Below are positions 12,169-60,087 of a stretch of DNA of 64,000 bases, piece after piece. Origin of the DNA: an uncultured bacterium. Lineage in GTDB: Bacteria; Patescibacteriota; Minisyncoccia; UBA6257; 2-01-FULL-56-20. The first letter of the stretch is position 1; each line of letters starts with the position of its first letter. Below the pieces are notes generated by a model. That model was given only the letters and a program-made list of their open reading frames with translations. It was not told the DNA's origin and made no database searches. The DNA lies in contig CAWJQC010000007.1 in the NCBI GenBank assembly GCA_963844965.1, positions 32,001 to 96,000 on the forward strand, read 5' to 3'. Position numbers and translations under genes: made by a program.

Positions 12169-13098
12169 CTACTCTTTCCCGAAGCGCTTATCCCTCAATT
12201 CCTGCAGCAACCGGGCCGCCTCGGCGATTCGCTTGCCATCAGGCTTCCCTTTGATAAGTTTTTGCTCTATGGCGGTCTTGGCGAGTTCGTCGAGGGTGGT
12301 GTGGTAATACGCGCCGCGCTCGTTATTCTCGGCGTGATCCCAATGGTCGCGGTCTCCCATGACCCACTGCTCAATGGTCAATTTGTTATCGATGTCTTTA
12401 ATGGGATTAAACTTAGCGAGGCGGCGCTTGCCCCAGTAGGTGAGATAGCGTTTAAGTTCCTCGAAGTCTTCGTCGGTAAGTTGAGCATATACGTTTACGG
12501 GCACATACCGCATATCTTTCGATCGCGCGCCCGGCGGCCATGCGCCACCCTGAAAACTGCTCATGGGGGCGTTAATACTCCCGTTCAAAATATATTGCTG
12601 AATAAACCAGCCGAAGTGTTCCGGCGCGTTGAATCGTGCCGCGATATAGCGTGGCATTTCATGGAGATAATAGCTTGGGTTTTTGAAGTTCAGCATCTTC
12701 CGGCGTAGTTTCGCAGCATCGAAATCTTTCTGCGCTTTTTCTCGGTCTTGTGCAGTGGCGTTTTTGTCTCGCGATAACTCATAACAGACCTTCCGGCACT
12801 TCTCGATTTCGGCGTTTGCGTCGCGCTCGCTTTTCTGGAATTCGAGGGAATCCAAGACTGCTTCGGAGCGTTCCAGAAGGCAGTCGCCCCATCCAACGTG
12901 TCGCTTGTCATTTTTATCAGTGGGGATATCGAGAAATTCCCGCGCTTCCGCGACGAACTCTTGGAACGGCTTGTGGGAAATGAGCAGCTTCATCATGTCG
13001 AGATTCTTCCTGTGGGATGGAAATTTGCCGTTCAGCCATCCCGTCGCCATTCTCTTGGCCGGAGACTTTTTCTTTGTTTTACGTTTCGCTTTGGGCAT
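12169..13098 (-). CDS. Hypothetical protein (basic N-terminus)
   Basis: 309 aa; MPKAKRKTKKKSPAKR.. N-terminus; no recognised domain. Confidence 0.5.
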   Translation of the reverse strand: MPKAKRKTKKKSPAKRMATGWLNGKFPSHRKNLDMMKLLISHKPFQEFVAEAREFLDIPTDKNDKRHVGWGDCLLERSEAVLDSLEFQKSERDANAEIEKCRKVCYELSRDKNATAQDREKAQKDFDAAKLRRKMLNFKNPSYYLHEMPRYIAARFNAPEHFGWFIQQYILNGSINAPMSSFQGGAWPPGARSKDMRYVPVNVYAQLTDEDFEELKRYLTYWGKRRLAKFNPIKDIDNKLTIEQWVMGDRDHWDHAENNERGAYYHTTLDELAKTAIEQKLIKGKPDGKRIAEAARLLQELRDKRFGKE

Positions 13099-13147: not shown

Positions 13148-13795
13148 ATGGATAAAGAAAAGCAAGAACAAGAAATTGAAGAGACTGCGTCGACAAATCA
13201 ATCCAAGAAGCCACGCAAATTAAAAGCGCGTTTACTGCGCCTTTATTACCTCGCCGTTTGGAACAGTACCCTCCGCAAAGATCGCTGCGTACAGTGGTTT
13301 CGGCGATATGCGCACGCCCTACGCGAAATTTTTATCTTAATAGTCACGATCGTTGCGGCTTGGTCTATCACGCAATTCATCGACATTTCTTCAATTTCGA
13401 CGAATAACTTGGCGAGTTGTTTTGTCGCGGTTGGTGCGATGATCGGTGGCGTCATAGCCATCGTGTTTTCGCTCTCGATTTTTGCCCAGCAAAGCAGCGC
13501 CGATCTTTATTCATCCCAGTATTTCGAGGTGTATGCCCACGATTGGAAAGAGAAGATGACGTATTCGTTAATTGTGCTCATAACGATTGCGTTCTTCGTC
13601 GGCGGAATCATTTTTTACGGCAACGCGAACTTGGCCACGGTCTATAAGTATGTCGGTGTGTATGCATCGCTGATCTTAATAGGAACCGTCTTCATTTTGG
13701 TCGATTGGCAGTACCGAAACGTAACGTCGAAGGCTAATCCCATTAAAGCGCTCAACTTTCTCGAAAGGCAATCTGACCCGGATAGGATAATTTAG
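13148..13795 (+). CDS. Membrane protein, C-terminus running into the IS terminus (probably truncated)
   Basis: 215 aa; several hydrophobic helices; the last codons ..DPDRII* are encoded by the IS IRL. Confidence 0.45.
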   Translation: MDKEKQEQEIEETASTNQSKKPRKLKARLLRLYYLAVWNSTLRKDRCVQWFRRYAHALREIFILIVTIVAAWSITQFIDISSISTNNLASCFVAVGAMIGGVIAIVFSLSIFAQQSSADLYSSQYFEVYAHDWKEKMTYSLIVLITIAFFVGGIIFYGNANLATVYKYVGVYASLILIGTVFILVDWQYRNVTSKANPIKALNFLERQSDPDRII

Positions 13796-13827
13796 ACACA
13801 AAGGTCGAAACAAACTACCATTGTGTC

Positions 13828-14091
13828 ATGAGCAACAAAAAAGGGCATCGGATTGCGAAGGAAGTGAAGGCGGACATCCTCCGCCGGGTGAAGGAAGAAG
13901 GAGTCCCCGTAGCGCAGGCTGCGAAGGACCACGGTTTGCACGAGTCCACCATCTACAATTGGCTAGGCGCAGGAGCATCGGGCGTCCCTTCCTGGGGCGA
14001 GTTCAGCCGTCTCCAGAAGCAGAACAGGGAGCTGTTTGAAGTGGTGGGCGAGCTCACCGTGAAGCTCTCCCAGGCCCAAAAAAAGAATTGA
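13828..14091 (+). CDS. IS3 transposase OrfA
   Basis: Identical to the other copies. Confidence 0.85.
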   Translation: MSNKKGHRIAKEVKADILRRVKEEGVPVAQAAKDHGLHESTIYNWLGAGASGVPSWGEFSRLQKQNRELFEVVGELTVKLSQAQKKN

Positions 14092-14870
14092 CGGAAAAGC
14101 GGAACAAGTCCGCCATGGCGCGGGCCATGGGCGTCTCGCGGGCATCGCTCTACTACGTATCACGGCAGGACAAGAAAGATTGGGCGCTCAAGATCCGCAT
14201 GGAAGAAGAATTGCAGCGCCATCCGGCATACGGTTCCCGGCGCTTGGGACAAGCTCTGGGCGTGAGCCGTCCGCGAGCGCAGCGCGTCATGCGAATCTTC
14301 GGCATAAGGCCGTACCGGAGGCGAGGCAGGAAATACCGGAAATCAAAGGCATCGCGGGCCTTTCCGAACCTCTTACTTGCCATCATGCCCTCGTACGCGA
14401 ACCACGTCTGGGCAACCGATTTCACGGAGTTCCTGTATCGCGGCAAGAAAGTGTACGTGTCCACGATACTCGATCTTTTCACGAGACGATTGATGGGCGT
14501 CCATGTGGCGTTGCGGAAAGGATCGCCCCTCACGATACAGACCCTGGCCAACGCGCTTTTCCACCATCCGCATCCGGTCATCTTCCATTCGGACAACGGC
14601 AGCGAGTACAAGGCACGAGCGTTCACCGATACACTGGGGGACTGTGGCATCACGATCTCGCGGTCGCGGCCCGGTGCCCCATGGGAAAACGGCTACCAGG
14701 AATCGTTCTATGACAAGTTCAAGATTGACCTCGGTGATCCCAACCGGTTCGGGACCTTCGGCGAGCTCGTGGCGGAGATCTACAGCACCTTGTGGCAGTA
14801 CAACCACACGCGGATCCACTCCGCCCTCAAGATGCCGCCGTCCGTGTTTGCCGAGAAGATTGCGGCTTAA
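14088..14870 (+). CDS. IS3 transposase OrfB
   Basis: Identical to the other copies; -1 frame relative to orfA. Confidence 0.85.
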   Translation: MTEKRNKSAMARAMGVSRASLYYVSRQDKKDWALKIRMEEELQRHPAYGSRRLGQALGVSRPRAQRVMRIFGIRPYRRRGRKYRKSKASRAFPNLLLAIMPSYANHVWATDFTEFLYRGKKVYVSTILDLFTRRLMGVHVALRKGSPLTIQTLANALFHHPHPVIFHSDNGSEYKARAFTDTLGDCGITISRSRPGAPWENGYQESFYDKFKIDLGDPNRFGTFGELVAEIYSTLWQYNHTRIHSALKMPPSVFAEKIAA

Positions 14871-14929
14871 CGAAAAAAAACGGCAAAAAGCCGTCGAATC
14901 ACTGTCTAAAGAAACCTATCCTTTACAGG

Positions 14930-15675
14930 GCACGGAATATGGCGAAGGCGGTCATCTTGTCATCCCGACGCTTTCATCGCGGCCGCACCATCATCCACGC
15001 GAACTCGACCGAGCGGTCATTGGCCGCATCCTTGCACTTCGCAGCGAACGGGACCAATGCGCGGAGATCGTCCATCACCGGCTAGAAGAGGAAAAGATTG
15101 CCGTTAGCCTTTCGTCCGTGAAGCGTACACTCAAACGCCACGGTATCACGCGATATTCAAAATGGAAGAAGTGGCACCAGTATCTTCCGCGTCCCATGCC
15201 CACAAAGCCAGGCATATTGGTTGAGATCGATTCAATGCAAGAAGGTATTGCCATGGACCACCTCCATGCGTACGCCTTGATCGACGTATGTTCCCGTTGG
15301 GCGTGGGCATGGCCAGCCGCCCAGGTCTCAAGCCGCTTAAGCGCACGGTTCGTCCAGCAAGCGCAAGCGGCAGCTCCGTTTCCTTTCGTCACAATCCAAT
15401 CCGACCGTGGCGGGGAGTTTTCAAAATGGTTTACCAAGGTCATCGAGCATCAGGGATTTTCACATCGCCACTCGCGCGTACGGACGCCAACAGATAACAG
15501 CCATGTGGAACGGTTCATCCAAACGCTTCAGCGGGACTGTTTACGACGTATCCCTAACACTCTTGCCGCGTGGCGCAAGGAGATTCCCGATTTTCTTCAC
15601 TACTACAATACCGAACGGCCGCACATGGGACTTGATATGAAAACGCCCGTCGAGTGGTTAGAAGCTATTGATTAG
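14930..15675 (+). pseudogene. IS481-like DDE transposase (integrase core), 5' end disrupted or ambiguous
   Basis: ..HTH-like RELDRAVIGRILALRSE.., then DSMQEG..DHLHAYALIDV.., QSDRGGEF.., HYYNTERPHMGLDMKTP. No in-frame ATG after the IS3 right end; the only ATG (14939) is in another frame that closes at 15085. Confidence 0.5.
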
Positions 15676-15691
15676 AAAGCATCACCGCGGG

Positions 15692-16129
15692 CTAAAGCCC
15701 GCGGCTTGTGTTCGGCTCCTGTTCCCACTGGTTTCTGATATATTCTCTCATCGCTTTTTCGTTTTGACGGCCAACGGTTTCGGCAAAGTAACCATCCTGC
15801 CACAAGCTGTCTCCCCAGAGGAATTCTTCCAGCTCGGGAAATTCTTTTCTGACAGCCCTGGACGTACCGCCTTTGAGATAAAACACCGCTTTGGCAACCG
15901 TCAGGGTAGCAGGAATTTGAAGCAATAGATGGACATGGTCGGGCATTATCTGCGCTTCATGGATGAACCATTTATTCATCTTGGCGGCTTGAAAGAACAA
16001 TGTCTTGAGTCGCCCGACCATGTCCCCTCGCAGTATCGAGCGGCGGTACTTTGGGCAGAAAACAACGTGGTACAAACATCGCGTATAGCTGTGGTTGCTT
16101 GGCCAGAATCCAGAGGGCATTATCTTCAT
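15692..16129 (-). CDS. tnpA: IS200/IS605-family Y1 transposase TnpA
   Basis: 145 aa; HVHLLL (HuH), Y..IRNQ; the palindrome ccgcgggctaaagcccgcgg overlaps the 3' end. Confidence 0.8.
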   Translation of the reverse strand: MKIMPSGFWPSNHSYTRCLYHVVFCPKYRRSILRGDMVGRLKTLFFQAAKMNKWFIHEAQIMPDHVHLLLQIPATLTVAKAVFYLKGGTSRAVRKEFPELEEFLWGDSLWQDGYFAETVGRQNEKAMREYIRNQWEQEPNTSRGL

Positions 16130-18566: not shown

Positions 18567-20177
18567 ATGTCTGATACGCCCGGTTTCATAGGGGGAGCTA
18601 TGCGCAAGGGTCTTCTTGTTGCCCTATTGGCCTTCATTGTGCTCGCCGGTCTGACCATCTCGATCGGCTTGTATTATTATCGATTTATAAATCAGCAGCT
18701 TACTTTGAGCGTTTACAATCACCGGCTGGTTGTCGCGAGCCTGACCGCATCCGGAATCAAGTTGAAATTGGACCATCTTGAGGGGATCGCGATATCTTTC
18801 GCGGCGCAGGACGACATGCGCGCAGAAATTATTGGCGGCAGATGGGAAGACGCCATGGCTAAGGCCGAGGACCTCTCCAACAGCCCAGATTTTTATGATT
18901 ACTACATAGACAGAACCTTATTGGTGGACGCCTCGGGAGCCATAAGAGCTGCCTATCCGCTCCTTAGCGGAACCATGGGTTTGCCCAAGTCAAATTTTAA
19001 GGAGTGGAGCGTTCCCCTTGAGAACGGGCAGGCCGCGTATGTTTCCGATGTCTATGAAAGGTCCGTCTCCCCGCGGATTAATGTCGTTGACGTCGTCGCG
19101 CCGGTTGCGGCGCACTCCGTTATTTACGGCTTCGTCGTTCTGCAGGTGCCCATCAATGAATTTTCCGATTTCGGCCAGGATACCGACATCAGCTCCAACG
19201 GTTTTGCCTACATAGTTGACAGGAAGGGTCAGATTGTATATCACCCGAAATATTCTTCCGTCGGTCCCATTGTTGACTATTCGGAGGTGCCGGCTGTGCA
19301 AAAATTGCTCAGCGGCGAAACCGGAATCGGAATTTTATCCAATCCGATTGAGAGAACGGAGAGAGTGTCGGCTTACGAATTGGTGCCGACATACGGGTGG
19401 GGCGTTGTGTCCGTGGAGCCGACCGCGGACGCGTTTGAGGCGCGGAATAGCATTTTGCACCAGATTTTGCTGGCCATTTCGGTTTTATGCGCATCAGAGC
19501 TTTTCCTGGCGATTTTCATTTTTTGGCTGGTTACGAGGTCCGAGAGAAGCAAACCGAACGCGGGATACGCGAGACAATTTCCGAAGACGCCGCCGAGGGC
19601 CAGCGGAGGGTTCACGCTGATAGAACTTTTGGTCGTTATCGCCATTATCGCCGTTTTGTCCATAGTCGTCATCCTGACCCTTAATCCGACGGAACTTCTG
19701 CGCCAGGCGAGGGATTCCGACAGGATTTCGGATCTCTCCATAATAAAGAGCGCCATTTCTATTTATTTGGTAGACCTGCGCAATCCGATTATCGCTTCCT
19801 CTACGGAATACTGCTACGAATCGGTCTTGGCAGCGAACGTCACCACTACCTACAGCACTTGGTTTCCCTCAATCCCACTCGGCAATGCGACTACTTCTCC
19901 GCAAGCTACCTACAGAAATATTGACGGCACGGGCTGGATTCATGTGAACTTTACCCAAATCAGCGCCGGCACGCCCTTCGGCCAGCTTCCGATCGACCCC
20001 TTGAATAACGCACAGTATATGTATATGTATGTAGGCAGTTCCACGCAGTCCACATTCAAACTCGCTACGGATATGGAAAGTTCAAAGTACGGCAATGGCG
20101 GAGCAGCGGACGTTGAGTCAAAAGACGGCGGCACTGACCCGAATAAATACGAAGCCGGAAGCAATCTCAATTTGTAG
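18567..20177 (+). CDS. dCache-like sensor domain (two TM helices) fused in frame to a type IV pilin/pseudopilin module
   Basis: N-terminal TM, ~300-aa periplasmic domain with Cache-like YVSDVY..GFVVLQVP..IVDRKGQIVYHP, second TM, then GGFTLIELLVVIAIIAVLS prepilin class-III signal, then a pilin body homologous to the two downstream pilins. Confidence 0.6.
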   Translation: MSDTPGFIGGAMRKGLLVALLAFIVLAGLTISIGLYYYRFINQQLTLSVYNHRLVVASLTASGIKLKLDHLEGIAISFAAQDDMRAEIIGGRWEDAMAKAEDLSNSPDFYDYYIDRTLLVDASGAIRAAYPLLSGTMGLPKSNFKEWSVPLENGQAAYVSDVYERSVSPRINVVDVVAPVAAHSVIYGFVVLQVPINEFSDFGQDTDISSNGFAYIVDRKGQIVYHPKYSSVGPIVDYSEVPAVQKLLSGETGIGILSNPIERTERVSAYELVPTYGWGVVSVEPTADAFEARNSILHQILLAISVLCASELFLAIFIFWLVTRSERSKPNAGYARQFPKTPPRASGGFTLIELLVVIAIIAVLSIVVILTLNPTELLRQARDSDRISDLSIIKSAISIYLVDLRNPIIASSTEYCYESVLAANVTTTYSTWFPSIPLGNATTSPQATYRNIDGTGWIHVNFTQISAGTPFGQLPIDPLNNAQYMYMYVGSSTQSTFKLATDMESSKYGNGGAADVESKDGGTDPNKYEAGSNLNL

Positions 20178-20290
20178 ATATATTTGCAAATGTGTCTTCG
20201 CGCGCTACTTCCCGCACCTCCTCAGGACGGGTTTTCGGTTATCCACAGAGGCGGTTATGAAGACGTGAGCGGTTTGTTACAATTAAGATT

Positions 20291-20330
20291 GTTGGTATTA
20301 GCAAAACGAAAAAGGTCGATTTGACGCGAT
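20291..20330 (+). promoter_or_regulatory. Conserved upstream element of pilin paralogs (copy 1)
   Basis: gttggtatta.c.aaac.a.aaaggtcgatttgacgcgat, repeated at 21205-21244 at the same distance from the start codon. Confidence 0.35.
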
Positions 20331-20348
20331 GTTTAGTGTGAAATAAAC

Positions 20349-20954
20349 ATGTCAAAGAAAACCAATAAAGGTTTTACGCTCGTTGAGCTTCTGGTTGTTA
20401 TCGCCATTATCGCCGTAATGTCCATAGTCGTCATTTTGACCCTTAACCCGGCGGAACTTCTGCGCCAGTCAAGGGATTCCAACAGAATTTCGGATATGGC
20501 GACGCTTAAGAGCGCGATGTCGCTCTACCTCGCGGATGTGAACGCGCCGTACCTCGGGACAAGTACCTGGTGTTATCAGGATGTAAGCGCGGCAAACGCC
20601 GCTACCGCGGGCACGAGCTCGAATTCCTGCAATGCTACGTTCGGTAATAATCCCGCCACAAATGCCGTGAGCAATGTGGCTTCTCCGAGGAATGTGGACG
20701 GCACGGGCTGGATTCCGGTTAATTTCTCCAAAATCAGCTCCGGCGCTCCGTTCGGCCAGCTTCCGATTGACCCCCTGGACAATGATGCGTTGCACCTGTA
20801 TCTCTACAAGACATCGAGCACGCTTCTCACTTTCCACATTGCAGTAAAGATGGAAAGCGCGAAGTACAGCTATCCTTCAGCCACCAATATTGAGGGTACC
20901 GATGGCGGCACCTCGCTTACCGAGTATGAAGTTGGAAATAATTTGAGCTTGTAA
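20349..20954 (+). CDS. Type IV pilin / pseudopilin (class III signal peptide)
   Basis: MSKKTNKGFTLVELLVVIAIIAV; conserved C-terminal VDGTGWIPVNF..GQLPIDPLDND. Confidence 0.75.
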   Translation: MSKKTNKGFTLVELLVVIAIIAVMSIVVILTLNPAELLRQSRDSNRISDMATLKSAMSLYLADVNAPYLGTSTWCYQDVSAANAATAGTSSNSCNATFGNNPATNAVSNVASPRNVDGTGWIPVNFSKISSGAPFGQLPIDPLDNDALHLYLYKTSSTLLTFHIAVKMESAKYSYPSATNIEGTDGGTSLTEYEVGNNLSL

Positions 20955-20996
20955 CGTCTGCGGACGGCAAGCCAGTCCGATTCTTGGCTTAAGAAC

Positions 20997-21028
20997 GTGA
21001 GCGCTCCGACCAAAGTCGGAGCGCTCAC
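20997..21028. terminator. Hairpin terminator after the pilin gene
   Basis: gtgagcgctccgac-caaa-gtcggagcgctcac followed by a T-rich stretch. Confidence 0.5.
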
Positions 21029-21204
21029 GTTTCTGCGTTGCCAGAACATCGTTCCGACCGCGGAAATATGCGGCGGCTCGGTTTCTGAGGCCGGCTCCAT
21101 CTTTGCTTTCGTTGATTTGCGCGAGCGGTATGGCCATAAATTGGGCTTTTGGGTTATCCACAGAGCATTCTGCGGATAAGGGGGAGATTTGCTATAATGT
21201 ATTT

Positions 21205-21244
21205 GTTGGTATTAACCAAACAAGAAAGGTCGATTTGACGCGAT
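21205..21244 (+). promoter_or_regulatory. Conserved upstream element of pilin paralogs (copy 2)
   Basis: See 20291-20330. Confidence 0.35.
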
Positions 21245-21252
21245 ATTCACAC

Positions 21253-21888
21253 AAAACGAATATGTCAAAGAAAACCAGCAAAGGTTTTACACTTATTGAA
21301 CTTTTGGTCGTTATTGCCATTATCGCCGTCTTGTCCATAGTCGTCATCTTGACCCTTAACCCCGCGGAACTCCTGCGTCAGGCGAGGGATTCCAACAGAA
21401 TTTCGGATATGTCCGTGGCGAAGAGCGCGATTTCGCTCTACCTCGCGGACGTGAGCTCGAATATCTCTATCGGGAGCACAACACCGTTCGTATACTGCTA
21501 TGAGGATGTTTCTGCGGCAAATGCGACCACTAATGGCACTACTTCGGCGAGTTGCAAAAGTGGTGTGGCAGGCGCAGAAACGTTTGCGAGCGACATAAGC
21601 TCCTCTAGCAACGCGGTTACTCCCAGAAACGTTGACGGCACGGGCTGGATTCCGGTTAACTTCACTAAAATCAGCTCCGGCGCGCCAATCGGTCAGCTTC
21701 CGGTTGACCCGTTAGATAATGACGGCATGCACATGTACCTCTACAGAACGAGTTCAACCCTCGTTTTCAAGATGGCGACAAAGATGGAAAGCTCTAAGTA
21801 CAGCAAGGGCGGCGCAGGTGACGTTGAGTCAACCGATGGCGGCACTAATACTGGCATGTATGAATCGGGAACCAATTTGAGTTTGTAG
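21253..21888 (+). CDS. Type IV pilin / pseudopilin
   Basis: MSKKTSKGFTLIELLVVIAIIAV; the ORF track extends it upstream to 21103, but this Met gives the canonical short leader. Confidence 0.75.
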   Translation, partial: KTNMSKKTSKGFTLIELLVVIAIIAVLSIVVILTLNPAELLRQARDSNRISDMSVAKSAISLYLADVSSNISIGSTTPFVYCYEDVSAANATTNGTTSASCKSGVAGAETFASDISSSSNAVTPRNVDGTGWIPVNFTKISSGAPIGQLPVDPLDNDGMHMYLYRTSSTLVFKMATKMESSKYSKGGAGDVESTDGGTNTGMYESGTNLSL

Positions 21889-21933
21889 TATGTAGGCGTG
21901 TGAAAGTTTGTCCCGGCGGTTTGTCCCACAAGG

Positions 21934-21963
21934 GGAGCGCTCCGACTTTGGTCGGAGCGCTCC
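21934..21963. terminator. Hairpin terminator after the pilin gene
   Basis: ggagcgctccgac-tttg-gtcggagcgctcc + TTTGTGTTTTT; same stem as 20997-21028 in opposite orientation. Confidence 0.5.
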
Positions 21964-48690: not shown

Positions 48691-51208
48691 ATGCGCAAAC
48701 AAGATGTTCTCGGGATAAGTTTGAGCGGGCTTTTTGGCGAATTGAGATCGTCCGAGAACGGTCTCACCGAAGAAGAAGCCGCCAAACGTTTTCGCGAGCA
48801 CGGTCCGAATATTCTCAAAAAAGAAGGCGTTAGCGCGCTCGGAGTTTTGCTTCGCCAATTCCAAAGCTCACTGATTTATCTTCTTGTCGCGGCGAGCGCG
48901 ATATCTTTTTGGATTAGGGATTATTCGGATGGGACGATTATCGCCGTTATTCTCCTCGTCAACGCCTCCCTGGGATTTTTTCAGGAATATAGATCGGAAA
49001 AGATCGTTGAGAAACTTTCAAAGTTTATCAGCCACCAAGTTCGCCTCAGGAGAAGCGGGCAGATTGTGTTATTGGACGAATCACGGATTGTTGTCGGAGA
49101 CGTGCTTGTCGTTCGCGAAGGCGATATTGTTCCGGCGGACATGCGGCTGTTTGAAGCCGACAATCTGGAAGTGAACGAGTCGCAGCTTACGGGCGAGTCG
49201 GTGCCGGTCGTTAAGCGTGTCTCAAATGATATCGCCAAAAATCCCGACTGCCTCGTTTTCACTGGCAGCGTCATTGAGAAAGGTGAGGGCGTTGGGATTG
49301 TCTATGCGATCGGCAACGACACGGAATTGGGAACTATCGCCAGGTTGTCAACGGAAACAAAGAAAGAAACGCAGTATGAGAAATCACTGCGGTCATTCAG
49401 TTCTTCTTTGATGAAAGTTGTTCTCCTCGGCTTGGCCCTGGTTTTCGCGCTCAAGTTGATTTTGAACGGAGGATTTTCAAACGCAGCGGGTCTTTTGCTT
49501 TTTATCATAGCCATGGCCGTTGCCGTGGTGCCCGAAGTTCTGCCGGTTATCGCCACGGTTACCTTGTCAAACGGAGCATTGAAACTCGCCAAAAGGCATG
49601 TGGTAGTTAAACGCCTGTCGTCGCTGGAGGATCTCGGCAATGTGGATTTGCTGTGCGCCGATAAGACAGGGACCATCACCGAAAACAGAATGGTCATAAA
49701 CAAAATTGTTTCCGCCGATGATAAATTGTTTCAGGAGCTTGCCTACGCCGCCATTACGCCCCTGAAAGGCAGAAAGAGAAGGATGCAGAATTCGTATGAC
49801 GACGCGTTCAACCGATATGTTTCCGACGCCGTGAGGAAAGAGGCGGTGAATTTCAGAGATCTTGAAAGAACTTCCTTTTGACCCGTATGACAGGAGAAGC
49901 CGGGTGGTGCTTGAGGATGCGGCGCACGGAAAACACTTTCTGCTTTCAATCGGCGCCCCCGAAGCGGTCTTTGAAATTAGCGGGAGCGAGCAAAAAGCGA
50001 AATATCTGGAAGACATCGCCGCGGAAGGCAGAAAAGGCCTGCATCATCTGGCGATAGCGTACAAGGAAGTATCATATGCTAACGATTTTGATATTTTGAA
50101 AAACGAACGCGATTTGAAATTCCTCGGATATGTGAGTTTAGAAGATCCGTTGCGGCCTACGGCCAAGAATACCGTTTACCTTGCCGAAAAACTTGGCATA
50201 AAAATCAAAATCCTGACGGGAGACAGCAAAGAGGTCGCCGAGTATGTCGGAAAGCAAATAGGGTTGGTGAAAGAGGGAGATAAAGAGGAAGATAAGGTGT
50301 ATCTCGGCGGCGAACTTGAGAAAATGTCGGAGGACGAATTCAGGACAGCCGTTCGGAGATGCAATGTGTTCGCCAGAGTTTCTCCGACCGATAAATACAA
50401 TATTATAAGGGCTCTCAAGGAAACTAATGTCGTCGGCTACGAGGGAGACGGCATCAATGACGCTCCGGCGCTGAAACTGGCGGACGTGGCGATCGCGGTC
50501 AACTCGGCCACGGACATCGCCAAGGAAAATTCCGACATTGTTCTTCTCAACAAAAGCCTTGAGGTCGTTATCAACGGCATAAAATACGGCAGGTCCATAT
50601 TCGTGAATATCAATAAGTATATTAAATACACCATGGTAAATAATTTTGGCACCTTTATTGCACTGGCCGTTTTATACTTGCTGTCTGCCTATTTACCAAT
50701 GCTCCCGATTCAAATACTTTTGACGAATGTGATTACAGACATTCCTCTCGTCACAATTTCGTCCGACACGGTTGAAGATGTAGAAGTAGTGCGGCCGGAA
50801 AAACACAATACGAAAGAACTGGTGTTCATCTCGCTTATTCTGGGAATTCCAACGGCTTTTTTTGAACTTCTCTACTTCTTGATTATCCGCTCACATCCCC
50901 GAGAGTTCGTGGCAACAGGCCTTTACGTCTTCCTTACCTTCTTGGCATTAATTGTTTTCTATGCGATAAGAAACAAAGAAAATTTCTGGAAAACAAAGCA
51001 GCCATCCCGTCTTTTGAACGTCTCTTTTGTGCTCGCTTTTGTCTTCTCGCTCGCGATCATTTATATGCCCCAGTTTCAGGCGTGGTTTTCCTTCGTGCCG
51101 TTGCCCGCGGCGTCGGTGATTGTCATTCTAATTCTGATGGTGCTCTACCTTTTCGCGGTGGATTTCGTCAAGGTGAGGTATTACAAGTTTTCTGCGGGGG
51201 AGAAATGA
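48691..51208 (+). CDS. mgtA: Mg2+-type P-type ATPase (MgtA-like), split by a frameshift near 49862-49870
   Basis: 48691-49881 carries TGES and CADKTGTIT; 49862-51208 carries GDGINDAPAL and the C-terminal TMs; the two frames join at ..NFRDL|KELPFDP. Confidence 0.75.
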
Positions 51209-51862: not shown

Positions 51863-51968
51863 GCAAAAGGGAAGTCACAGTTTGTGCACCGATTTCCTTA
51901 CACAAAATTAAAAAATATTGCTTGCTATGACAACAGGAATCGAACCTAAAATTGGAAGCCCCCGATAT

Positions 51969-52023
51969 CCAGAGGCTATTATAAGTGTCCTTTCAGATAG
52001 AAATTATATGGAAAATCTGCATT
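51969..52023 (+). repeat. 55-bp direct repeat, copy A
   Basis: ccagaggctattataagtgtcctttcagatagaaattatatggaaaatctgcatt; ~85% identical to 54485-54539. Confidence 0.6.
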
Positions 52024-52296
52024 TTAAATTCTGTTTCATAAAGGCGTTACAACGCTCAGAAACGGCACATTAACGGCGGCAAGAAATTATTATAACAAAG
52101 GACCTCTTCTTGCGCGGCATAGTAGACGACGCTAGAGCCGTCATCCAGCGATAAAATGAGTATATTTACATCCCAAATTTGAGGGCAGAAGCAATGAGGG
52201 TATAATTTCACCTACTGCATTATTCACTATTTCTCTTGCCATAATATCCTGCGCTTGACACCTGTTTTTAATTTTTGGAAGGGATATAATTATATT

Positions 52297-52572
52297 ATGA
52301 ATAAAAAATTACTAATAAGCGTCTTAGGTGTCTTCGTGTTATTAATTTTAGGCCTAGCCGGTTATTATTTGTGGTTTTATAAAAAACCAATGTCTCCTAC
52401 CGCCGAACAAGCGGTTACGGATATTCAAAAAACGGTTCAGTCTATTGATCAGAATGTAGCCGGGAGTGTTTTCGGCACCACAACGGCTAATCCAATGGAG
52501 AATGTCCCCGATGTTAATCCCTATAAAAATACCAACCCATTTTCAGATATTAAAACCAATCCTTTTCAATAA
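52297..52572 (+). CDS. Small signal-anchored protein
   Basis: MNKKLLISVLGVFVLLILGLAGYYLWFY.. then an N/P/T-rich tail. Confidence 0.4.
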   Translation: MNKKLLISVLGVFVLLILGLAGYYLWFYKKPMSPTAEQAVTDIQKTVQSIDQNVAGSVFGTTTANPMENVPDVNPYKNTNPFSDIKTNPFQ

Positions 52573-52577
52573 AAACT

Positions 52578-54263
52578 ATGAATAAAAAAACTTTAAGCGT
52601 ATTGATACTAATTTCTTCAGTAATGATCTCCGGTGTTATTGTCGGTTCGGCGATGGCGCAGACCCCGGCCGATCAAAGTACGACAACTTTATCCGCAAGT
52701 ATCACGTATCCGATTCCGGAATTGGGCAATTGTCAAAGTCAGGCGGATTGTAAAACCTTTTGCGACGATACCAAGAATACCGATGCCTGTTTGGCTTTTG
52801 CCCAAGCCAATAATTTAATGAGTTCCGACCAAGTGGCTGCCGCTAAAAAATTTGCGGATAGCGGAATGGTTGGTCCGGGCGGATGCAAGGGAGAAACCGA
52901 ATGCGACACGTATTGCGGCGATACGAGCCACATAGAAGAGTGTATTACGTTTGCGCAAAATAACGGATTGATGTCCGAACAAAAGCTACAGGAATCGCAA
53001 AAGGTTTTGGCAGCCATTAAAACAGGTGTCAAACCTTTGGGCTGCAATAGTGAGCAGGAATGTGAAGCATATTGTGCGACCGCTGAACATATGGAGGAGT
53101 GCATAAATTTCGGCACCGAGGCAGGAATATTGCCGGCTCAGGATCAGGAGAATGCGCGCAAAGTTTTGACCGCTATAAAAAATGGTGCCGTGCCTCCGTG
53201 CGAAGGTGATGCGTGTCCGGCTTTTTGCAGCAAACCGCAGAACGCGGATGCTTGCGAGAAGTTCCGTATCGAGGCTGGAATTCCGTCACGCTCCGAAATG
53301 ATAGTAGTTCAGGCAATACTTACTCTTATAGCAAAAGGAACTACTATGTCTACTTGCAGCGGTGCGCAAGGATGCCAGGATTATTGTTCTCAAGATGCCC
53401 ATGCTGAAGAATGCGCTAAATTTGCCGAGGATAATGGGGCGATTACGTCTTCAGAGGCAGAAGCAGCTATAGGCGGAGAAGCAGCGCCCGAAGGACCGGG
53501 TGGATGTAAGACTAAAGACGAGTGCGATGCTTATTGCAATAATCCGGATAATTCCGAAACTTGCTTTAATTATGCCAAGGATAACGGACTGATTTCCTCG
53601 GAAGACCTAAAGAAAATAGAAGATAGCCAGCAGCAAATGAAAGATTCTTTTAATAATATGCCCGCAGAGATATTAACCTGTTTAACTACTTCTTTAGGCG
53701 CAGACACGGTTGAAAAATTAAAAAGCGGAAACGCTATACCAGATCAGAAAACGGCCGAACAAATGAAGACTTGTTTTGACCAATACACTCCAACCGCTCC
53801 AACCGCTCCGGCTGGTCCGGGGAGTCAAGCCGGACAAAATCAGGGCGGACAAGGACAGGGTGGCGGAGGAGGTGGCAACGGTGGTGGTAGCGGCGGAGGT
53901 AGTGGCGGGGGAGGACAGGGCCAAGGTAACCAACCAACCCAACCTACTCAACCGAGCCAACCTATGCAACCAACCCAACCTACTCAACCGGGCCAGCCGA
54001 CTCAGCCCAGCCAACCATCACAGCTACTACCTCAGACGGGCCCCGGTGGATGCAAAACCATCGAAGAATGTAAGACGTATTGCCAGGCGCATCCGGAAGC
54101 TAAAACAGAGTGTCAGCAATTTAAGCAGAGTCAACAGGGACAATCTGGACAGAATCAGCCGACGCAAGGCCCGAATAATCAACAACCCAGTCAACCCAGC
54201 CAGCCGACTCCACCGCAACCTCCGACTCAGCCTACTCCACCAAGTCAACCAAGCCCGCCATAA
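52578..54263 (+). CDS. Secreted protein with ~9 tandem 4-Cys repeats (C-x5-C-x3-C-x8-C) plus Gly-rich and PTQ-rich tail
   Basis: Signal peptide; repeats such as GPGGCKGETECDTYCGDTSHIEECITFAQNNGLMS; GGQGQGGGGGG and QPTQPTQPSQP low-complexity tail. Confidence 0.6.
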   Translation: MNKKTLSVLILISSVMISGVIVGSAMAQTPADQSTTTLSASITYPIPELGNCQSQADCKTFCDDTKNTDACLAFAQANNLMSSDQVAAAKKFADSGMVGPGGCKGETECDTYCGDTSHIEECITFAQNNGLMSEQKLQESQKVLAAIKTGVKPLGCNSEQECEAYCATAEHMEECINFGTEAGILPAQDQENARKVLTAIKNGAVPPCEGDACPAFCSKPQNADACEKFRIEAGIPSRSEMIVVQAILTLIAKGTTMSTCSGAQGCQDYCSQDAHAEECAKFAEDNGAITSSEAEAAIGGEAAPEGPGGCKTKDECDAYCNNPDNSETCFNYAKDNGLISSEDLKKIEDSQQQMKDSFNNMPAEILTCLTTSLGADTVEKLKSGNAIPDQKTAEQMKTCFDQYTPTAPTAPAGPGSQAGQNQGGQGQGGGGGGNGGGSGGGSGGGGQGQGNQPTQPTQPSQPMQPTQPTQPGQPTQPSQPSQLLPQTGPGGCKTIEECKTYCQAHPEAKTECQQFKQSQQGQSGQNQPTQGPNNQQPSQPSQPTPPQPPTQPTPPSQPSPP

Positions 54264-54484: not shown

Positions 54485-54539
54485 TCCAGAAGCTATTATA
54501 AGTGTCTTATCGGATAGGAATTATATGGAAAATCTGTAT
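54485..54539 (+). repeat. 55-bp direct repeat, copy B
   Basis: ccagaagctattataagtgtcttatcggataggaattatatggaaaatctgtatt. Confidence 0.6.
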
Positions 54540-54644
54540 TCCAAGTTTTACATTTTGAGGGAGATGGAGCGGTTGGAAATATCTAAATGTAAAGGATAGG
54601 TTTCTTTAGACAGTGATTCGACGGCTTTTTGCCGTTTTTTTTCG

Positions 54645-55427
54645 TTAAGCCGCAATCTTCTCGGCAAACACGGACGGCGGCATCTTGAGGGCGGAGTGGA
54701 TCCGCGTGTGGTTGTACTGCCACAAGGTGCTGTAGATCTCCGCCACGAGCTCGCCGAAGGTCCCGAACCGGTTGGGATCACCGAGGTCAATCTTGAACTT
54801 GTCATAGAACGATTCCTGGTAGCCGTTTTCCCATGGGGCACCGGGCCGCGACCGCGAGATCGTGATGCCACAGTCCCCCAGTGTATCGGTGAACGCTCGT
54901 GCCTTGTACTCGCTGCCGTTGTCCGAATGGAAGATGACCGGATGCGGATGGTGGAAAAGCGCGTTGGCCAGGGTCTGTATCGTGAGGGGCGATCCTTTCC
55001 GCAACGCCACATGGACGCCCATCAATCGTCTCGTGAAAAGATCGAGTATCGTGGACACGTACACTTTCTTGCCGCGATACAGGAACTCCGTGAAATCGGT
55101 TGCCCAGACGTGGTTCGCGTACGAGGGCATGATGGCAAGTAAGAGGTTCGGAAAGGCCCGCGATGCCTTTGATTTCCGGTATTTCCTGCCTCGCCTCCGG
55201 TACGGCCTTATGCCGAAGATTCGCATGACGCGCTGCGCTCGCGGACGGCTCACGCCCAGAGCTTGTCCCAAGCGCCGGGAACCGTATGCCGGATGGCGCT
55301 GCAATTCTTCTTCCATGCGGATCTTGAGCGCCCAATCTTTCTTGTCCTGCCGTGATACGTAGTAGAGCGATGCCCGCGAGACGCCCATGGCCCGCGCCAT
55401 GGCGGACTTGTTCCGCTTTTCCGTCAA
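54645..55427 (-). CDS. IS3 transposase OrfB
   Basis: Identical to the other copies. Confidence 0.85.
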   Translation of the reverse strand: MTEKRNKSAMARAMGVSRASLYYVSRQDKKDWALKIRMEEELQRHPAYGSRRLGQALGVSRPRAQRVMRIFGIRPYRRRGRKYRKSKASRAFPNLLLAIMPSYANHVWATDFTEFLYRGKKVYVSTILDLFTRRLMGVHVALRKGSPLTIQTLANALFHHPHPVIFHSDNGSEYKARAFTDTLGDCGITISRSRPGAPWENGYQESFYDKFKIDLGDPNRFGTFGELVAEIYSTLWQYNHTRIHSALKMPPSVFAEKIAA

Positions 55428-55687
55428 TTCTTTTTTTGGGCCTGGGAGAGCTTCACGGTGAGCTCGCCCACCACTTCAAACAGCTCCCTGTTCTGCTTCT
55501 GGAGACGGCTGAACTCGCCCCAGGAAGGGACGCCCGATGCTCCTGCGCCTAGCCAATTGTAGATGGTGGACTCGTGCAAACCGTGGTCCTTCGCAGCCTG
55601 CGCTACGGGGACTCCTTCTTCCTTCACCCGGCGGAGGATGTCCGCCTTCACTTCCTTCGCAATCCGATGCCCTTTTTTGTTGCTCAT
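55424..55687 (-). CDS. IS3 transposase OrfA
   Basis: Identical to the other copies. Confidence 0.85.
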   Translation of the reverse strand: MSNKKGHRIAKEVKADILRRVKEEGVPVAQAAKDHGLHESTIYNWLGAGASGVPSWGEFSRLQKQNRELFEVVGELTVKLSQAQKKN

Positions 55688-55741
55688 GACACAATGGTAG
55701 TTTGTTTCGACCTTTGTGTCTAAATTATCCTATCCGGGTCA

Positions 55742-55773
55742 ACCTTTGTGTCTAAATTATCCTATCCGGGTCA
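55742..55773 (-). repeat. Tandem duplicate of the terminal 32 bp (IRL) of the IS3 element
   Basis: acctttgtgtctaaattatcctatccgggtca repeats 55710-55741 exactly. Confidence 0.7.
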
Positions 55774-55776
55774 AGT

Positions 55777-55951
55777 GATGGTTGATTTAAGTAAGCTCTA
55801 TCCCGATATTGATATTGCCGAAACGCTCTCGAACCTAACGGGAAAATGGATCAAGACAATCAAGGGCAATAAGGTTGAATTTTCTGATGGTAGCGAGATA
55901 GATACAAGCGATATGGATTACAAACTTATTAAGCCATTGATTTGGTGGTAA
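55777..55951 (+). CDS. Small hypothetical protein
   Basis: ~58 aa from MVDLSKLYPDIDIAE..; N-terminus resembles the start of the downstream helicase (MSKLY..). Confidence 0.3.
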
Positions 55952-58650
55952 ATATGTCGAAGTTGTATTTACAAGACATAGTTGAGGACATCCCGTTTGA
56001 TGATCTGCCCGCGAAATGGCAGGACTTTGACTTCGGCAGGTTTTCTTCCGATAAAACACTATTTGGCTTCCAGCAAAATGGCTTACGGAACGCTCTGAAA
56101 GCGCTCTGGCTTTTTTATAAAGATAGGAAGGGAAACAAAATAGAGCTTTATGAACAATATAAGGCAAATGGCTTGGGCGCGGATTTTGATTATGATTTGA
56201 CGCGAGAAAGAAAAGCCGCTGACCATCTTTTGGAATTTGATACGGATTATCCGAAAACAGACGGCAAAATTGCTTTTGCCCACTTCTTAAACCGCATGAG
56301 CTTTTGGATGGCTACGGGCTCTGGAAAGACGCTGATTATCGTAAAACTCATTGATATGCTCGGCGCTTTAATGAGGCAAAAAGAGATTCCTCAAAACGAT
56401 ATTCTGTTCTTGGCTCATAGGGACGACCTTTTGGAACAATTCAAAAATCATGTGGATCAATTCAATAGCTTCAATTTTGAAACAAGAATCAACTTCAAGA
56501 GCTTGAAAGATTATGAGAGCGTCAAGCGCGAGAACGCTCTGCCATTTGCAAAAAACGAGATAACGGTATTCTACTACCGCTCGGATTTAATATCAGACGA
56601 GCACAAAGAAAAAATTGTCAATTTCAAAAATTATGATAACGGCGGCAAGTGGTATGTTCTTCTCGATGAGGCGCACAAAGGCGATAGAGAGGACAGCAAA
56701 AGACAGATTCTATATTCAATCCTTTCAAGAAGCGGCTTTCTGTTCAATTTTTCCGCTACCTTTACCGATCCGCGGGATTACGCAACCTGTGCCTTTAATT
56801 TCAATCTTTCAAAATTCATTGAGGATGGTTACGGCAAGCATATTTATGTATCAAGCGCGGAAGTAACGGCTTTCCGCGATCAAGACGACTTCTCAAAAAT
56901 TACGAAGCAGAAAATCGTTTTGAAAACGCTGATACTGCTTACATATATCAATAAGTATTTTGAGAAGGTTCGGAAACAGGATAAAAAGCTGTATCATCGC
57001 CCACTCCTTCTTACTCTCGTCAATTCCGTTGATACGAAAGATGCGGACTTAAAGCTGTTCTTTTCCGAACTGGAAAAGATAGCCAAAAATGAAATAAGAG
57101 GCGACTTGATTGAAAAAGCCAAAGAGGAACTCATAAAAGAATTTGAAGAAAATCCGCAATATGAATTTGAGGGCATAAATGTAGAGATTGATAAGGCCTC
57201 GCTCAAAAAAATCTGCTATAAGGATATTTTGAAGCAGATTTTCAACGCAAAATCTTCTGGTAATATCGAGGTTTTGAAAATTCCGAATAACAGAAACGAA
57301 ATAATCTTTAAGCTGCAAACTTCTGAAAAACCATTCGGGCTGATTAAGATCGGGGATATTTCGGGATGGCTTAAGGAAACGCTTGAGGGTTATGAAATAA
57401 TCGAGAGCTTTGAGAATGAAAGCGTATTTAAGCGGATCAACCACGATGACTCCGAAATTAACATTCTGATGGGCTCCCGTGCCTTTTACGAGGGCTGGGA
57501 CTCAAACAGGCCGAACATTCTCTTATTCGTAAATATCGGCATCGGAAGCGACGCAAAGAAGTTTGTCCTGCAATCCGTTGGCCGAGGCGTAAGAATTGAA
57601 CCGCAAAAGAATAAACGGAAAAGAATTTTGGAATTGCACAACGCAAAAGAAATAAAGACAGAGCTATTTAATAAAATCCGAAGCAATATACAAGCGCTTG
57701 AGAGCTTGTTCGTATTCGGAACAAACGCCGATAATCTGAAGGAAATAATCAAGGCGCTGAAAGAAGAAAAACAAGAGCAAGATTTAGGTGCCGAATTTAT
57801 TATAAATAAAGATGCTGAAAAACGGCTGTTGCTTATACCTACTTACCGAGAATCGGAAAAGATATTTGCCGAAGAAAAAGAGCCGCAGAAATACGGAATC
57901 AGCCGAGAGGACTTGGCACTCGCAAAATCAATGTTCAGCTATCTTGGCGATAAAGTAACTCTGGCAAAATTTGAGTGTGAAGTAAGGGTTATTAAAAAGA
58001 CAGCCGAGAGTTTTGAAACAGCCGAGCAATACTTTGACCTTAACGAGGAGAGGTCAATTTCCGAGCCAGATTTGCTGGTTGATAGGATACTGGACTACTT
58101 CAGCGTCAGGGATAAAGAATTTGATAAATTCAAAAAACTGGAAAACGAGATCGTCCACTTCAAGCGGATAAGGTTTAATGACGGCGAGAAGTTTGAAGAA
58201 ATAAAACAGAAAATCGGCAAAATAAAGGAGTATCCAGAAAGACAGCGAGAACTGGATAAACAATACGGAAAAATATCGCGGGAAGAATTTGCGAGAAAGC
58301 AGGCGAGTTTGTTTGACGCGCAGACCTTTGAATACAAGAGCAAAAAGCTAAAAATCAAATATATCCAAAACCATTACTACATTCCTCTGATTATTTCAGA
58401 AAATGAAAAAGTTGATTATCTCAACCACATTATTGATGTTGAAAGCGAAGTCCGTTTCATAGAACAATTGGAAGAATACCTACAGCAGGACGACAATGTA
58501 TTCAAACAATTTGATTGGTGGATGTTCTCAAAGCTCGATCAAACGCTGGACGAAGTTCATGTGCCGTATTACAGCCCAAAAGAAAACAATATGGCAAGGT
58601 TTAAGCCCGACTTTATCTTCTGGCTGCAAAAGGTGACCCGGATAGGATAA
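55942..58650 (+). CDS. Superfamily-2 DEAH helicase, type III restriction Res-like (ResIII/PF04851-like), C-terminus interrupted by an IS
   Basis: Motif I MATGSGKT, II VLLDEAHKG, III SATF, VI QSVGRGVRI; C-terminus ..KPDFIFWLQK reads straight into the IS IRL, so a C-terminal (nuclease?) portion may be lost. Confidence 0.7.
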   Translation: MVVNMSKLYLQDIVEDIPFDDLPAKWQDFDFGRFSSDKTLFGFQQNGLRNALKALWLFYKDRKGNKIELYEQYKANGLGADFDYDLTRERKAADHLLEFDTDYPKTDGKIAFAHFLNRMSFWMATGSGKTLIIVKLIDMLGALMRQKEIPQNDILFLAHRDDLLEQFKNHVDQFNSFNFETRINFKSLKDYESVKRENALPFAKNEITVFYYRSDLISDEHKEKIVNFKNYDNGGKWYVLLDEAHKGDREDSKRQILYSILSRSGFLFNFSATFTDPRDYATCAFNFNLSKFIEDGYGKHIYVSSAEVTAFRDQDDFSKITKQKIVLKTLILLTYINKYFEKVRKQDKKLYHRPLLLTLVNSVDTKDADLKLFFSELEKIAKNEIRGDLIEKAKEELIKEFEENPQYEFEGINVEIDKASLKKICYKDILKQIFNAKSSGNIEVLKIPNNRNEIIFKLQTSEKPFGLIKIGDISGWLKETLEGYEIIESFENESVFKRINHDDSEINILMGSRAFYEGWDSNRPNILLFVNIGIGSDAKKFVLQSVGRGVRIEPQKNKRKRILELHNAKEIKTELFNKIRSNIQALESLFVFGTNADNLKEIIKALKEEKQEQDLGAEFIINKDAEKRLLLIPTYRESEKIFAEEKEPQKYGISREDLALAKSMFSYLGDKVTLAKFECEVRVIKKTAESFETAEQYFDLNEERSISEPDLLVDRILDYFSVRDKEFDKFKKLENEIVHFKRIRFNDGEKFEEIKQKIGKIKEYPERQRELDKQYGKISREEFARKQASLFDAQTFEYKSKKLKIKYIQNHYYIPLIISENEKVDYLNHIIDVESEVRFIEQLEEYLQQDDNVFKQFDWWMFSKLDQTLDEVHVPYYSPKENNMARFKPDFIFWLQKVTRIG

Positions 58651-58687
58651 TTTAGACACAAAGGTCGAAACAAACTACCATTGTGTC

Positions 58688-58951
58688 ATGAGCAACAAAA
58701 AAGGGCATCGGATTGCGAAGGAAGTGAAGGCGGACATCCTCCGCCGGGTGAAGGAAGAAGGAGTCCCCGTAGCGCAGGCTGCGAAGGACCACGGTTTGCA
58801 CGAGTCCACCATCTACAATTGGCTAGGCGCAGGAGCATCGGGCGTCCCTTCCTGGGGCGAGTTCAGCCGTCTCCAGAAGCAGAACAGGGAGCTGTTTGAA
58901 GTGGTGGGCGAGCTCACCGTGAAGCTCTCCCAGGCCCAAAAAAAGAATTGA
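58688..58951 (+). CDS. IS3 transposase OrfA
   Basis: Identical to the other copies. Confidence 0.85.
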   Translation: MSNKKGHRIAKEVKADILRRVKEEGVPVAQAAKDHGLHESTIYNWLGAGASGVPSWGEFSRLQKQNRELFEVVGELTVKLSQAQKKN

Positions 58952-59730
58952 CGGAAAAGCGGAACAAGTCCGCCATGGCGCGGGCCATGGGCGTCTCGCG
59001 GGCATCGCTCTACTACGTATCACGGCAGGACAAGAAAGATTGGGCGCTCAAGATCCGCATGGAAGAAGAATTGCAGCGCCATCCGGCATACGGTTCCCGG
59101 CGCTTGGGACAAGCTCTGGGCGTGAGCCGTCCGCGAGCGCAGCGCGTCATGCGAATCTTCGGCATAAGGCCGTACCGGAGGCGAGGCAGGAAATACCGGA
59201 AATCAAAGGCATCGCGGGCCTTTCCGAACCTCTTACTTGCCATCATGCCCTCGTACGCGAACCACGTCTGGGCAACCGATTTCACGGAGTTCCTGTATCG
59301 CGGCAAGAAAGTGTACGTGTCCACGATACTCGATCTTTTCACGAGACGATTGATGGGCGTCCATGTGGCGTTGCGGAAAGGATCGCCCCTCACGATACAG
59401 ACCCTGGCCAACGCGCTTTTCCACCATCCGCATCCGGTCATCTTCCATTCGGACAACGGCAGCGAGTACAAGGCACGAGCGTTCACCGATACACTGGGGG
59501 ACTGTGGCATCACGATCTCGCGGTCGCGGCCCGGTGCCCCATGGGAAAACGGCTACCAGGAATCGTTCTATGACAAGTTCAAGATTGACCTCGGTGATCC
59601 CAACCGGTTCGGGACCTTCGGCGAGCTCGTGGCGGAGATCTACAGCACCTTGTGGCAGTACAACCACACGCGGATCCACTCCGCCCTCAAGATGCCGCCG
59701 TCCGTGTTTGCCGAGAAGATTGCGGCTTAA
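58948..59730 (+). CDS. IS3 transposase OrfB
   Basis: Identical to the other copies. Confidence 0.85.
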   Translation: MTEKRNKSAMARAMGVSRASLYYVSRQDKKDWALKIRMEEELQRHPAYGSRRLGQALGVSRPRAQRVMRIFGIRPYRRRGRKYRKSKASRAFPNLLLAIMPSYANHVWATDFTEFLYRGKKVYVSTILDLFTRRLMGVHVALRKGSPLTIQTLANALFHHPHPVIFHSDNGSEYKARAFTDTLGDCGITISRSRPGAPWENGYQESFYDKFKIDLGDPNRFGTFGELVAEIYSTLWQYNHTRIHSALKMPPSVFAEKIAA

Positions 59731-59862
59731 CGAAAAAAAACGGCAAAAAGCCGTCGAATCACTGTCTAAAGAAACCTATCCTTTACATCGGGCAAAAAGT
59801 TAGAGTTTACAATGCGAAAACCGTTTGATGCGGTCCTCGAATTGGCTACTTGTCCAACTGGG

Positions 59863-59933
59863 CTCCGGCGCCTGGATTCGAACCAGGAACCTTCTCCTTA
59901 ACAGGGAGCCGCTCTACCGTTGAGCTACGCCGG
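59863..59933 (-). tRNA. tRNA-Asn (anticodon GUU)
   Basis: Reverse complement folds as acceptor tccggcg/cgccgga, D arm gctc-aacggta-gagc, anticodon loop cuGUUaa, T arm cctgg-ttcgaat-ccagg, discriminator G. Confidence 0.8.
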
Positions 59934-60087
59934 AATCCTTATTCTTATTAATGTATCAAAAAAACAGATTTTTTTCAATCTCGCCAGCCGCAATGCTGCG
60001 AGATCATACTTTAATGTTGAAAAAAAAGAAAAAAGCCGAGTGGTTGGAAAAGTTAGGAAAGGCGGCGTAAAAATTAAAACGTCCCGG

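Follow-up and report, generated by a model that had tools for sequence, protein, structure and literature searches.

In a 64,000-nucleotide stretch of a contig from an uncultured bacterium (CAWJQC010000007.1, assembly GCA_963844965.1; this whole stretch is called the window below), two inverted copies of an IS3-family insertion sequence (IS), IS-C and IS-D, enclose what appear to be the remains of a Type III restriction-modification (R-M) system. The enclosed segment, measured from a solo terminal repeat beside IS-C to the start of IS-D, is 2860 bp long and has a GC content of 39.7%, compared with about 50% for the surrounding chromosome and 56.8% for the IS. It holds the 3′ stump of a methyltransferase gene, mod, followed by a res gene that lacks its 3′ end. 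The tail of a large serine recombinase gene and a tRNA-Asn gene lie directly outside IS-D (Table 1).

Table 1. Positions of the IS copies and of the island remnants in the window
Feature	Position	Strand	Description
IS-A	9400-10553	minus	complete 1154-bp copy; first pair
IS-B	13774-14927	plus	complete 1154-bp copy; first pair
IS-C	54588-55741	minus	right terminal repeat (IRR) at 54588, left terminal repeat (IRL) at 55741; orfA 55424-55687, orfB 54645-55427 (minus)
Solo IRL copy	55742-55773	minus	direct tandem with the IRL of IS-C
3′ stump of Type III mod	55774-55951	plus	last ~58-60 codons, stop 55949-55951
Type III res, codons 1-893 of ~976	55954-58633	plus	superfamily 2 (SF2) ATPase complete; nuclease domain cut after KPDFIFWLQK
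IS-D	58634-59787	plus	complete 1154-bp copy; orfA 58688-58951, orfB 58948-59730
Tail of large serine recombinase gene	59788-59862	plus	last ~75 bp; right end of island
tRNA-Asn (GTT)	59863-59934	minus	ARAGORN; Rfam tRNA 68.2 bits; island end adjoins its 3′ end

The Truncated res Gene

The larger gene fragment lies within the open reading frame (ORF) 55942-58650, which an earlier note on this DNA had described as a 902-amino-acid, Res-like DEAH helicase. The assignment is borne out by a Pfam ResIII match (PF04851, E = 3.6e-18, residues 117-275) and by motifs I (MATGSGKT), II (LLDEAHKG, with DEAH), III (FSAT), and VI (QSVGRGVR), all of which can be read in the translation and are invariant across 34 homologs. 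The length is likely 898 amino acids, which is also that of database entry P0001, with translation starting at ATG 55954, 2 nt past the mod stop codon; a start at TTG 55942 would give 902. The PADLOC profile REase_III matches residues 284-658. Pfam Helicase_C is matched neither by the window ORF at E ≤ 0.01 nor by the intact homolog P0003 at E ≤ 0.1, although motif VI is present; given this motif and the REase_III coverage, a second RecA-like lobe is probably present but divergent. Searches of NCBIfam and PHROGs with Res gave no match.

Homologs of Res number in the thousands, and the best ones are 971-1000 amino acids long. By tblastn, the window copy corresponds to residues 1-893 of the 976-amino-acid P0003, with 93% amino acid identity, and the first 17 nt of IS-D supply its last five codons, (V)TRIG, together with the stop. 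Both the C-terminal truncation and the IS-encoded last codons had been proposed before, and both are confirmed, the truncation by these longer homologs of about 976 amino acids. Intact homologs run on past KPDFIFWLQK with ...KGKDYTILFVDPKG. Across this stretch of intact Res (KPDFIFWMQKGKDYTILFVDPKG...), P885 and D886 are invariant and D903, P904, and K905 nearly invariant. Because the former precede the break and the latter follow it, the IS-D cut falls between the PD and DxK halves of the nuclease motif. The window Res is left with the first half, and, as had been recognized, without a complete C-terminal PD-(D/E)xK endonuclease domain.

The mod Stump

Directly upstream of res is a short ORF (55748-55951, 67 amino acids) that had been read as resembling the helicase N terminus, with the helicase itself thought to be a lone gene without mod. 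Comparison with intact loci overturns both points. The ORF matches positions 763-816 of 816 in the PADLOC MTase_III profile PDLC03638 (E = 6.8e-7), a profile on which the intact Mod of the closest relative, locus L001, scores 715 bits. By tblastn, it is 93% identical to residues 761-820 of this 820-amino-acid Mod, and at the DNA level the identity is 95.5%, with homology beginning at 55773/55774. The sequence SKLY is native to the Mod C terminus and does not represent a duplicated helicase start. Judged by these matches, the short ORF is the end of the cognate Type III mod. No intact cognate mod lies upstream of res in the window, where Mod residues 761-820 alone remain. None of the best 120 Mod homologs is a truncated protein from the 331,718-bp source contig, although this is a weak negative.

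Four Identical Copies of an IS3-Family Element

The 1154-bp element is an IS3-family insertion sequence. Each copy comprises orfA, encoding 87 amino acids with an HTH_Tnp_1 domain, and orfB, encoding 260 amino acids with an rve/DDE domain (Pfam), and the orfB product scores 189.8 bits with NCBIfam transpos_IS3 (cutoff 160). As in IS911, IS3, and IS150, the two genes occupy frames 0 and −1, orfA ends on a slippery heptamer (A AAA AAG; in IS-D it spans 58939-58945 and is in frame with orfA), and the element ends in TG...CA. The terminal inverted repeats are imperfect and about 33 bp long (IRL, TGACCCGGATAGGATAATTTAGACA...; IRR as its reverse complement, TGTAAAGGATAGGTTTCTTTAGACA...). The element differs from these relatives in being short, in lacking the 3-5-bp target duplication at all ten copies for which both flanks are available, and in that one copy, IS-C, carries a tandem solo IRL.

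This element has expanded recently: the window holds four copies within 50 kb, and these are 100% identical to one another. In each of the two pairs they form, the orfA-side end (IRL, TGACCCGGATAGG...) points inward, as reported in the earlier note, and the arms of IS-C and IS-D (54587-55748 and 58627-59788) make up a 1162-nt inverted repeat with 100% complementarity. A scan of genome contigs with the IRL returned a single match, one distant IS (76% identical) in another metagenome-assembled genome. On the source contig, a 346-amino-acid ORF, P0124, begins as orfA of the IS and runs on in other frames of the element, which indicates at least one more, degenerate copy; orfA was also found on two further contigs.

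The solo repeat beside IS-C, also described previously, is an exact duplicate of 55710-55741 and, at 32 bp, essentially a whole terminal repeat. In 25 other loci bearing this IRL, no second IRL match was found. The solo copy may be the remnant of a second IS that inserted just inside the IRL of the resident copy, with recombination between the two copies then removing the rest; targeting close to terminal repeats has reportedly been seen for IS911. In a related metagenome locus (L013:1-44), 11 bp separate the IRR end of an element (CTTTACA) from the IRL of the complete related IS that comes next, head to tail as in a tandem dimer or circle junction. The tandem IRL and this IRR-11 bp-IRL arrangement would fit an IS3 lineage, occurring in Patescibacteria and in metagenomes from groundwater, whose members make no target duplication on insertion and favor their own terminal repeat as a target. 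We regard the existence of such a lineage as rather improbable. If it were real, an IS of this kind would systematically produce one-sided deletions and inverted pairs with inward IRLs, and would so dismantle defense islands in very small genomes.

The Parent Island and Its Breakpoints

The closest intact locus, L001 (GCA_030689595.1), encodes the 820-amino-acid Mod and the 976-amino-acid Res P0003 used above. Intact relatives share the gene order HTH_17, mod (741-820 amino acids), res (976-981 amino acids), and large serine recombinase, and three of them (L001, L034, and L036) also have the same three unknown genes ahead of it. The parent system is classed as Type III. Like EcoP15I and EcoP1I, it has mod followed by res, here with a 2-nt gap; a Mod of about 800 amino acids with an N6_N4 (beta-class) methylase; and a Res whose N-terminal part is an SF2 DEAH ATPase (ResIII) and whose C-terminal domain is a PD...DxK nuclease. 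PADLOC MTase_III and REase_III are the best-matching profiles. The family differs from these enzymes in having no detectable similarity to those that have been solved, in its undetected Helicase_C, and in moving as a tRNA-Asn island in the company of an HTH_17 gene and a gene for a large serine recombinase. The system in the window differs further in being broken, with Mod 1-760 and Res 894-976 missing.

Two blocks of the window are collinear with L001, namely 55773-58631 with L001 7820-10678, and 59787-59871 with L001 12343-12428, the 3′ end of the recombinase gene. Both blocks break exactly at IS ends. Between them, IS-D occupies the place of an approximately 1.66-kb part of the island (L001 ~10679-12342) that comprises the 3′ end of res and most of the recombinase gene, that is, res codons 894-976 and recombinase codons 1 to ~471. 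On the left, IS-C and the solo IRL stand in place of mod codons 1-760, and the entire island upstream of codon 761 is gone. A tblastn search over the 64 kb found no further piece beyond Mod 761-820, Res 1-893, and recombinase 472-503.

The DNA beyond the outer end of IS-D is the recombinase tail, matched by tblastn as residues 472-503 of 524 and 98.8% identical to L001 12344-12423. The junction between this tail and tRNA-Asn recurs in the Candidatus Azambacteria locus L028 and in L036, and the 3′ end of tRNA-Asn is the presumed integration site of the island. Identity to L001 is mosaic along the remnant, at 95.5% of nucleotides in the mod tail (55775-55951), 84.5% in res (55954-58631), and 98.8% in the recombinase tail (59788-59867), suggesting either that related cassettes have recombined or that the attachment region is strongly conserved.

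These flanks bear on the possibility that the inverted IS pair captured the mod and res fragments elsewhere and carried them to this site as a composite transposon, a geometry implied in the earlier note. Identical inverted IS arms around a cargo do recall Tn10 and Tn5, and the first IS pair in the window has the same arrangement. However, the cargo consists of two gene fragments, and the outer flank of IS-D is the ancestral neighbor: island DNA collinear with res, in the form of the recombinase 3′ end, which intact islands have downstream of res and which adjoins tRNA-Asn exactly as it does in L028 and L036. The recombinase tail next to tRNA-Asn outside IS-D therefore shows that the IS pair did not import the cargo and that the ISs lie inside a resident tRNA-Asn island. 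Nor is there any sign of movement as a unit. Neither IS pair is flanked as a unit by a target duplication, and no second instance of this IS-cargo-IS unit turned up: P0001 forms a cluster of one, from a single contig, and the matches from other contigs do not include the truncated Res. A composite transposon is thus very unlikely.

A comparable, independent case of IS damage is provided by a 2-Mb metagenome contig (L031:1-8955), in which an IS21 element (rve + IstB) splits a mod of the same family. There, too, a 67-amino-acid ORF, a mod fragment, stands directly upstream of res, paralleling the mod stump in the window. In L031, res is intact at 984 amino acids and the pieces of mod lie nearby, whereas in the window neither gene is complete and the parts that they have lost are not found within its bounds.

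The Distant Methyltransferase and the First IS Pair

The gene at 10532-11794 (minus), 45 kb away in the first IS-flanked segment, had been put forward as a cognate-looking methyltransferase, with the suggestion that IS-mediated rearrangement had separated the modules of one system. Its product combines a ParB N terminus with an N6_N4 methylase, and its best matches are the phage family phrog_498 (E = 4.8e-78) and PADLOC MTase_II PDLC03229 (E = 3.4e-51, profile positions 10-396 of 436). With the true Mod it shares a single 56-residue match at the S-adenosylmethionine (SAM)-binding motif, in which 19 of the 56 residues are identical. The gene lacks its own 3′ end, having been cut by the IRL end of IS-A.

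A single R-M system split by an IS-mediated inversion, with this ParB-methyltransferase as the partner of Res, would be mechanically possible, in that both genes adjoin IRL ends of mutually inverted, identical IS copies; the methyltransferase is also a member of the broad Pfam family N6_N4_Mtase, which includes the Type III Mods. Nevertheless, we consider it scarcely credible. The ParB-methyltransferase is of phage type and has nothing but the SAM motif in common with Mod, on which grounds it was rejected as the cognate partner of Res, while the mod stump is the C terminus of a different protein that matches a different profile (PDLC03638). In all intact relatives, a Mod of 741-820 amino acids is encoded directly upstream of res. 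Furthermore, the ParB-methyltransferase has lost its 3′ end and mod lacks its 5′ part, so the former cannot be the missing part of the latter, and no other Mod piece lies in the window. An intramolecular inversion was likewise rejected, the flank patterns expected from it not being matched at the IS copies, and GC skew, examined for a large inversion between IS-B and IS-C, shows no change of sign at the IS positions.

The other flanks of the first pair also end in damaged genes. The IRL end of IS-B truncates the ORF 13148-13795 (plus), and its IRR end adjoins a 5′-truncated, IS481-like transposase gene. Genes at the IRL ends (10532-11794, 13148-13795, and 55954-58650) all read into the IS with loss of their 3′ ends and acquire IS-encoded tails, DPDRII* in two cases and VTRIG* in one. 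A DUF4352 gene (8861-9421) likewise enters the IRR of IS-A; just upstream of it is a LOOT RNA motif (Rfam RF03000, 8667-8787, plus; 83 bits against a gathering score of 46.4). Mobile elements are locally crowded at 14929-16129 in this small-genome bacterium, where the 5′-truncated IS481-like gene is accompanied by an ORF (15692-16129, minus) that resembles a TnpA of IS200/IS605 type by eye.

Origin and Functional State of the Locus

Considered together, these observations are consistent with a model in which the locus is an IS-eroded, non-functional remnant of a Type III R-M system within a decayed tRNA-Asn island, a reading to which we assign a probability of roughly 85%. The breakpoints and the missing parts are defined by comparison with intact relatives, and the outer right flank is collinear with them. 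On this reading, the segment is what is left of an island of roughly 10 kb that was acquired horizontally, and it represents the ordinary decay of a mobile R-M island under IS activity and not a new system. In situ insertions of the IS would have hit mod on one side and res (or the recombinase gene) on the other. The DNA on the IRR sides would then have been lost, through adjacent deletion mediated by the IS or through recombination of copies in direct repeat.

Type III Res acts only together with a Mod dimer (Mod2Res complex), which recognizes the site, and cleaves with its PD-(D/E)xK domain. Cleavage by such enzymes depends on ATP and on a pair of unmethylated sites in inverse orientation, and their Mod hemimethylates DNA. 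With Mod absent and the nuclease motif halved, the R-M system is predicted to be pseudogenized, able neither to methylate nor to restrict. The res gene is a young pseudogene. It contains no stops in 893 codons, its ratio of nonsynonymous to synonymous substitution rates (dN/dS) relative to L001 is 0.023, and the IS copies are identical, from which it follows that the damage is recent. In its outline, the earlier interpretation of a disrupted restriction helicase stands, as a Type III Res whose 3′ end was removed by an IS3-family element, as do the observations of the IS pair, the Res-type ORF, and its truncation; the absence of mod, the start codon, a Pfam Helicase_C match, the lone helicase, the distant cognate methyltransferase, and the composite geometry do not.

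Several results weigh against this reading. Target duplications of 2-5 bp are found at none of the four window copies and at none of six complete related metagenome copies (75-78% identical, with the same IRL; loci L003, L009, L013, L014, L017, L024, and L026 were examined), and hence the order of insertion and deletion cannot be rebuilt from the flanks. The joins through four identical 1.15-kb repeats are read from the assembled contig, and the search for the lost parts of mod (5′) and res (3′) covered the 64-kb window. In addition, phmmer and profile searches of PDB sequences returned no significant match to any solved Type III enzyme, the best match being a Walker-A stretch of a Type I HsdR (E = 0.6). 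The full-length AlphaFold model of Res is poor, with a mean predicted local distance difference test (pLDDT) score of 51.8, and a Foldseek search of the PDB with it gave noise only. With no solved relative found, the Type III label rests on the PADLOC and Pfam profiles, gene order, and domain order.

Missing target duplications are unusual for the IS3 family and may reflect rearrangement or chimeric assembly through repeats. In the latter case, the contig path would be collapsed or chimeric through the four identical 1154-bp repeats, the true genome would carry simple IS insertions or further DNA between the IS copies, and both the apparent deletions and the missing duplications would result from mis-joins; the six related copies that also lack duplications sit on short metagenome contigs, where chimeric repeat joins are common. 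In contrast, the two flanks of IS-D belong to the same island, in the same orientation and ancestral order, and lie 1.66 kb apart in relatives, an arrangement that a random mis-join would rarely produce. Moreover, no two of the eight IS flanks in the window complete each other, so that simple insertions cannot be restored by re-ordering the segments. We therefore judge an assembly artifact unlikely.

It could also be asked whether the truncated Res has been kept as a functional, stand-alone SF2 translocase or helicase with a C terminus supplied by the IS. Its ATPase part is intact, with all the motifs listed above and an uninterrupted reading frame. Against this, the 100% identity of the IS copies points to a recent event, after which intactness would be expected by default, and the low dN/dS reflects divergence that preceded the truncation. 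A promoter scan outward from the IS or the solo IRL into res found nothing above background. Among the homologs listed, no comparable truncated form occurs save three entries of about 855-865 amino acids, at least one of them labeled partial. Type III Res is not known to bind DNA productively in the absence of Mod, and we give a retained helicase function next to no likelihood. The reading as an eroded R-M island is the one we retain.

Other Features of the Window

The window also encodes HisRS, FtsA, FtsZ, PilB, and ribonucleotide reductase (RNR), and the best named matches of FtsZ are from Patescibacteria/Paceibacterota; the host is of Patescibacteria type (Parcubacteria/Paceibacteria-like). 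To the left of IS-C, a 63-nt direct repeat (51968-52030 and 54485-54547, 86% identity) brackets two genes for secreted proteins, at 52255-52572 and 52578-54263, the latter with Cys-rich repeats and a low-complexity PTQPSQ tail. Between the second copy of the repeat and the outer end of IS-C there are 40 nt, and an Rfam scan of the repeat gave no match. A P-type cation ATPase is encoded in two overlapping ORFs on the plus strand, 48691-49881 (E1-E2_ATPase, N terminus) and 49862-51208 (Hydrolase, C terminus), the split being due either to a frameshift or to a sequencing error. Several families of 100-300-nt direct repeats with 60-95% identity occur in 231-6703 and 19579-21962, suggesting tandem paralogous genes.

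Implications

Apart from annotation, the locus has little significance. Its "helicase" should be labeled a res pseudogene and its 67-amino-acid ORF a mod fragment, and it does not belong in counts of active or orphan defense systems. It does offer a clean, small example of a burst of a single IS eroding an acquired R-M island in a reduced Patescibacteria genome, and it documents a widespread, uncharacterized Type III-like cassette of HTH_17, mod, res, and large serine recombinase genes at tRNA-Asn.

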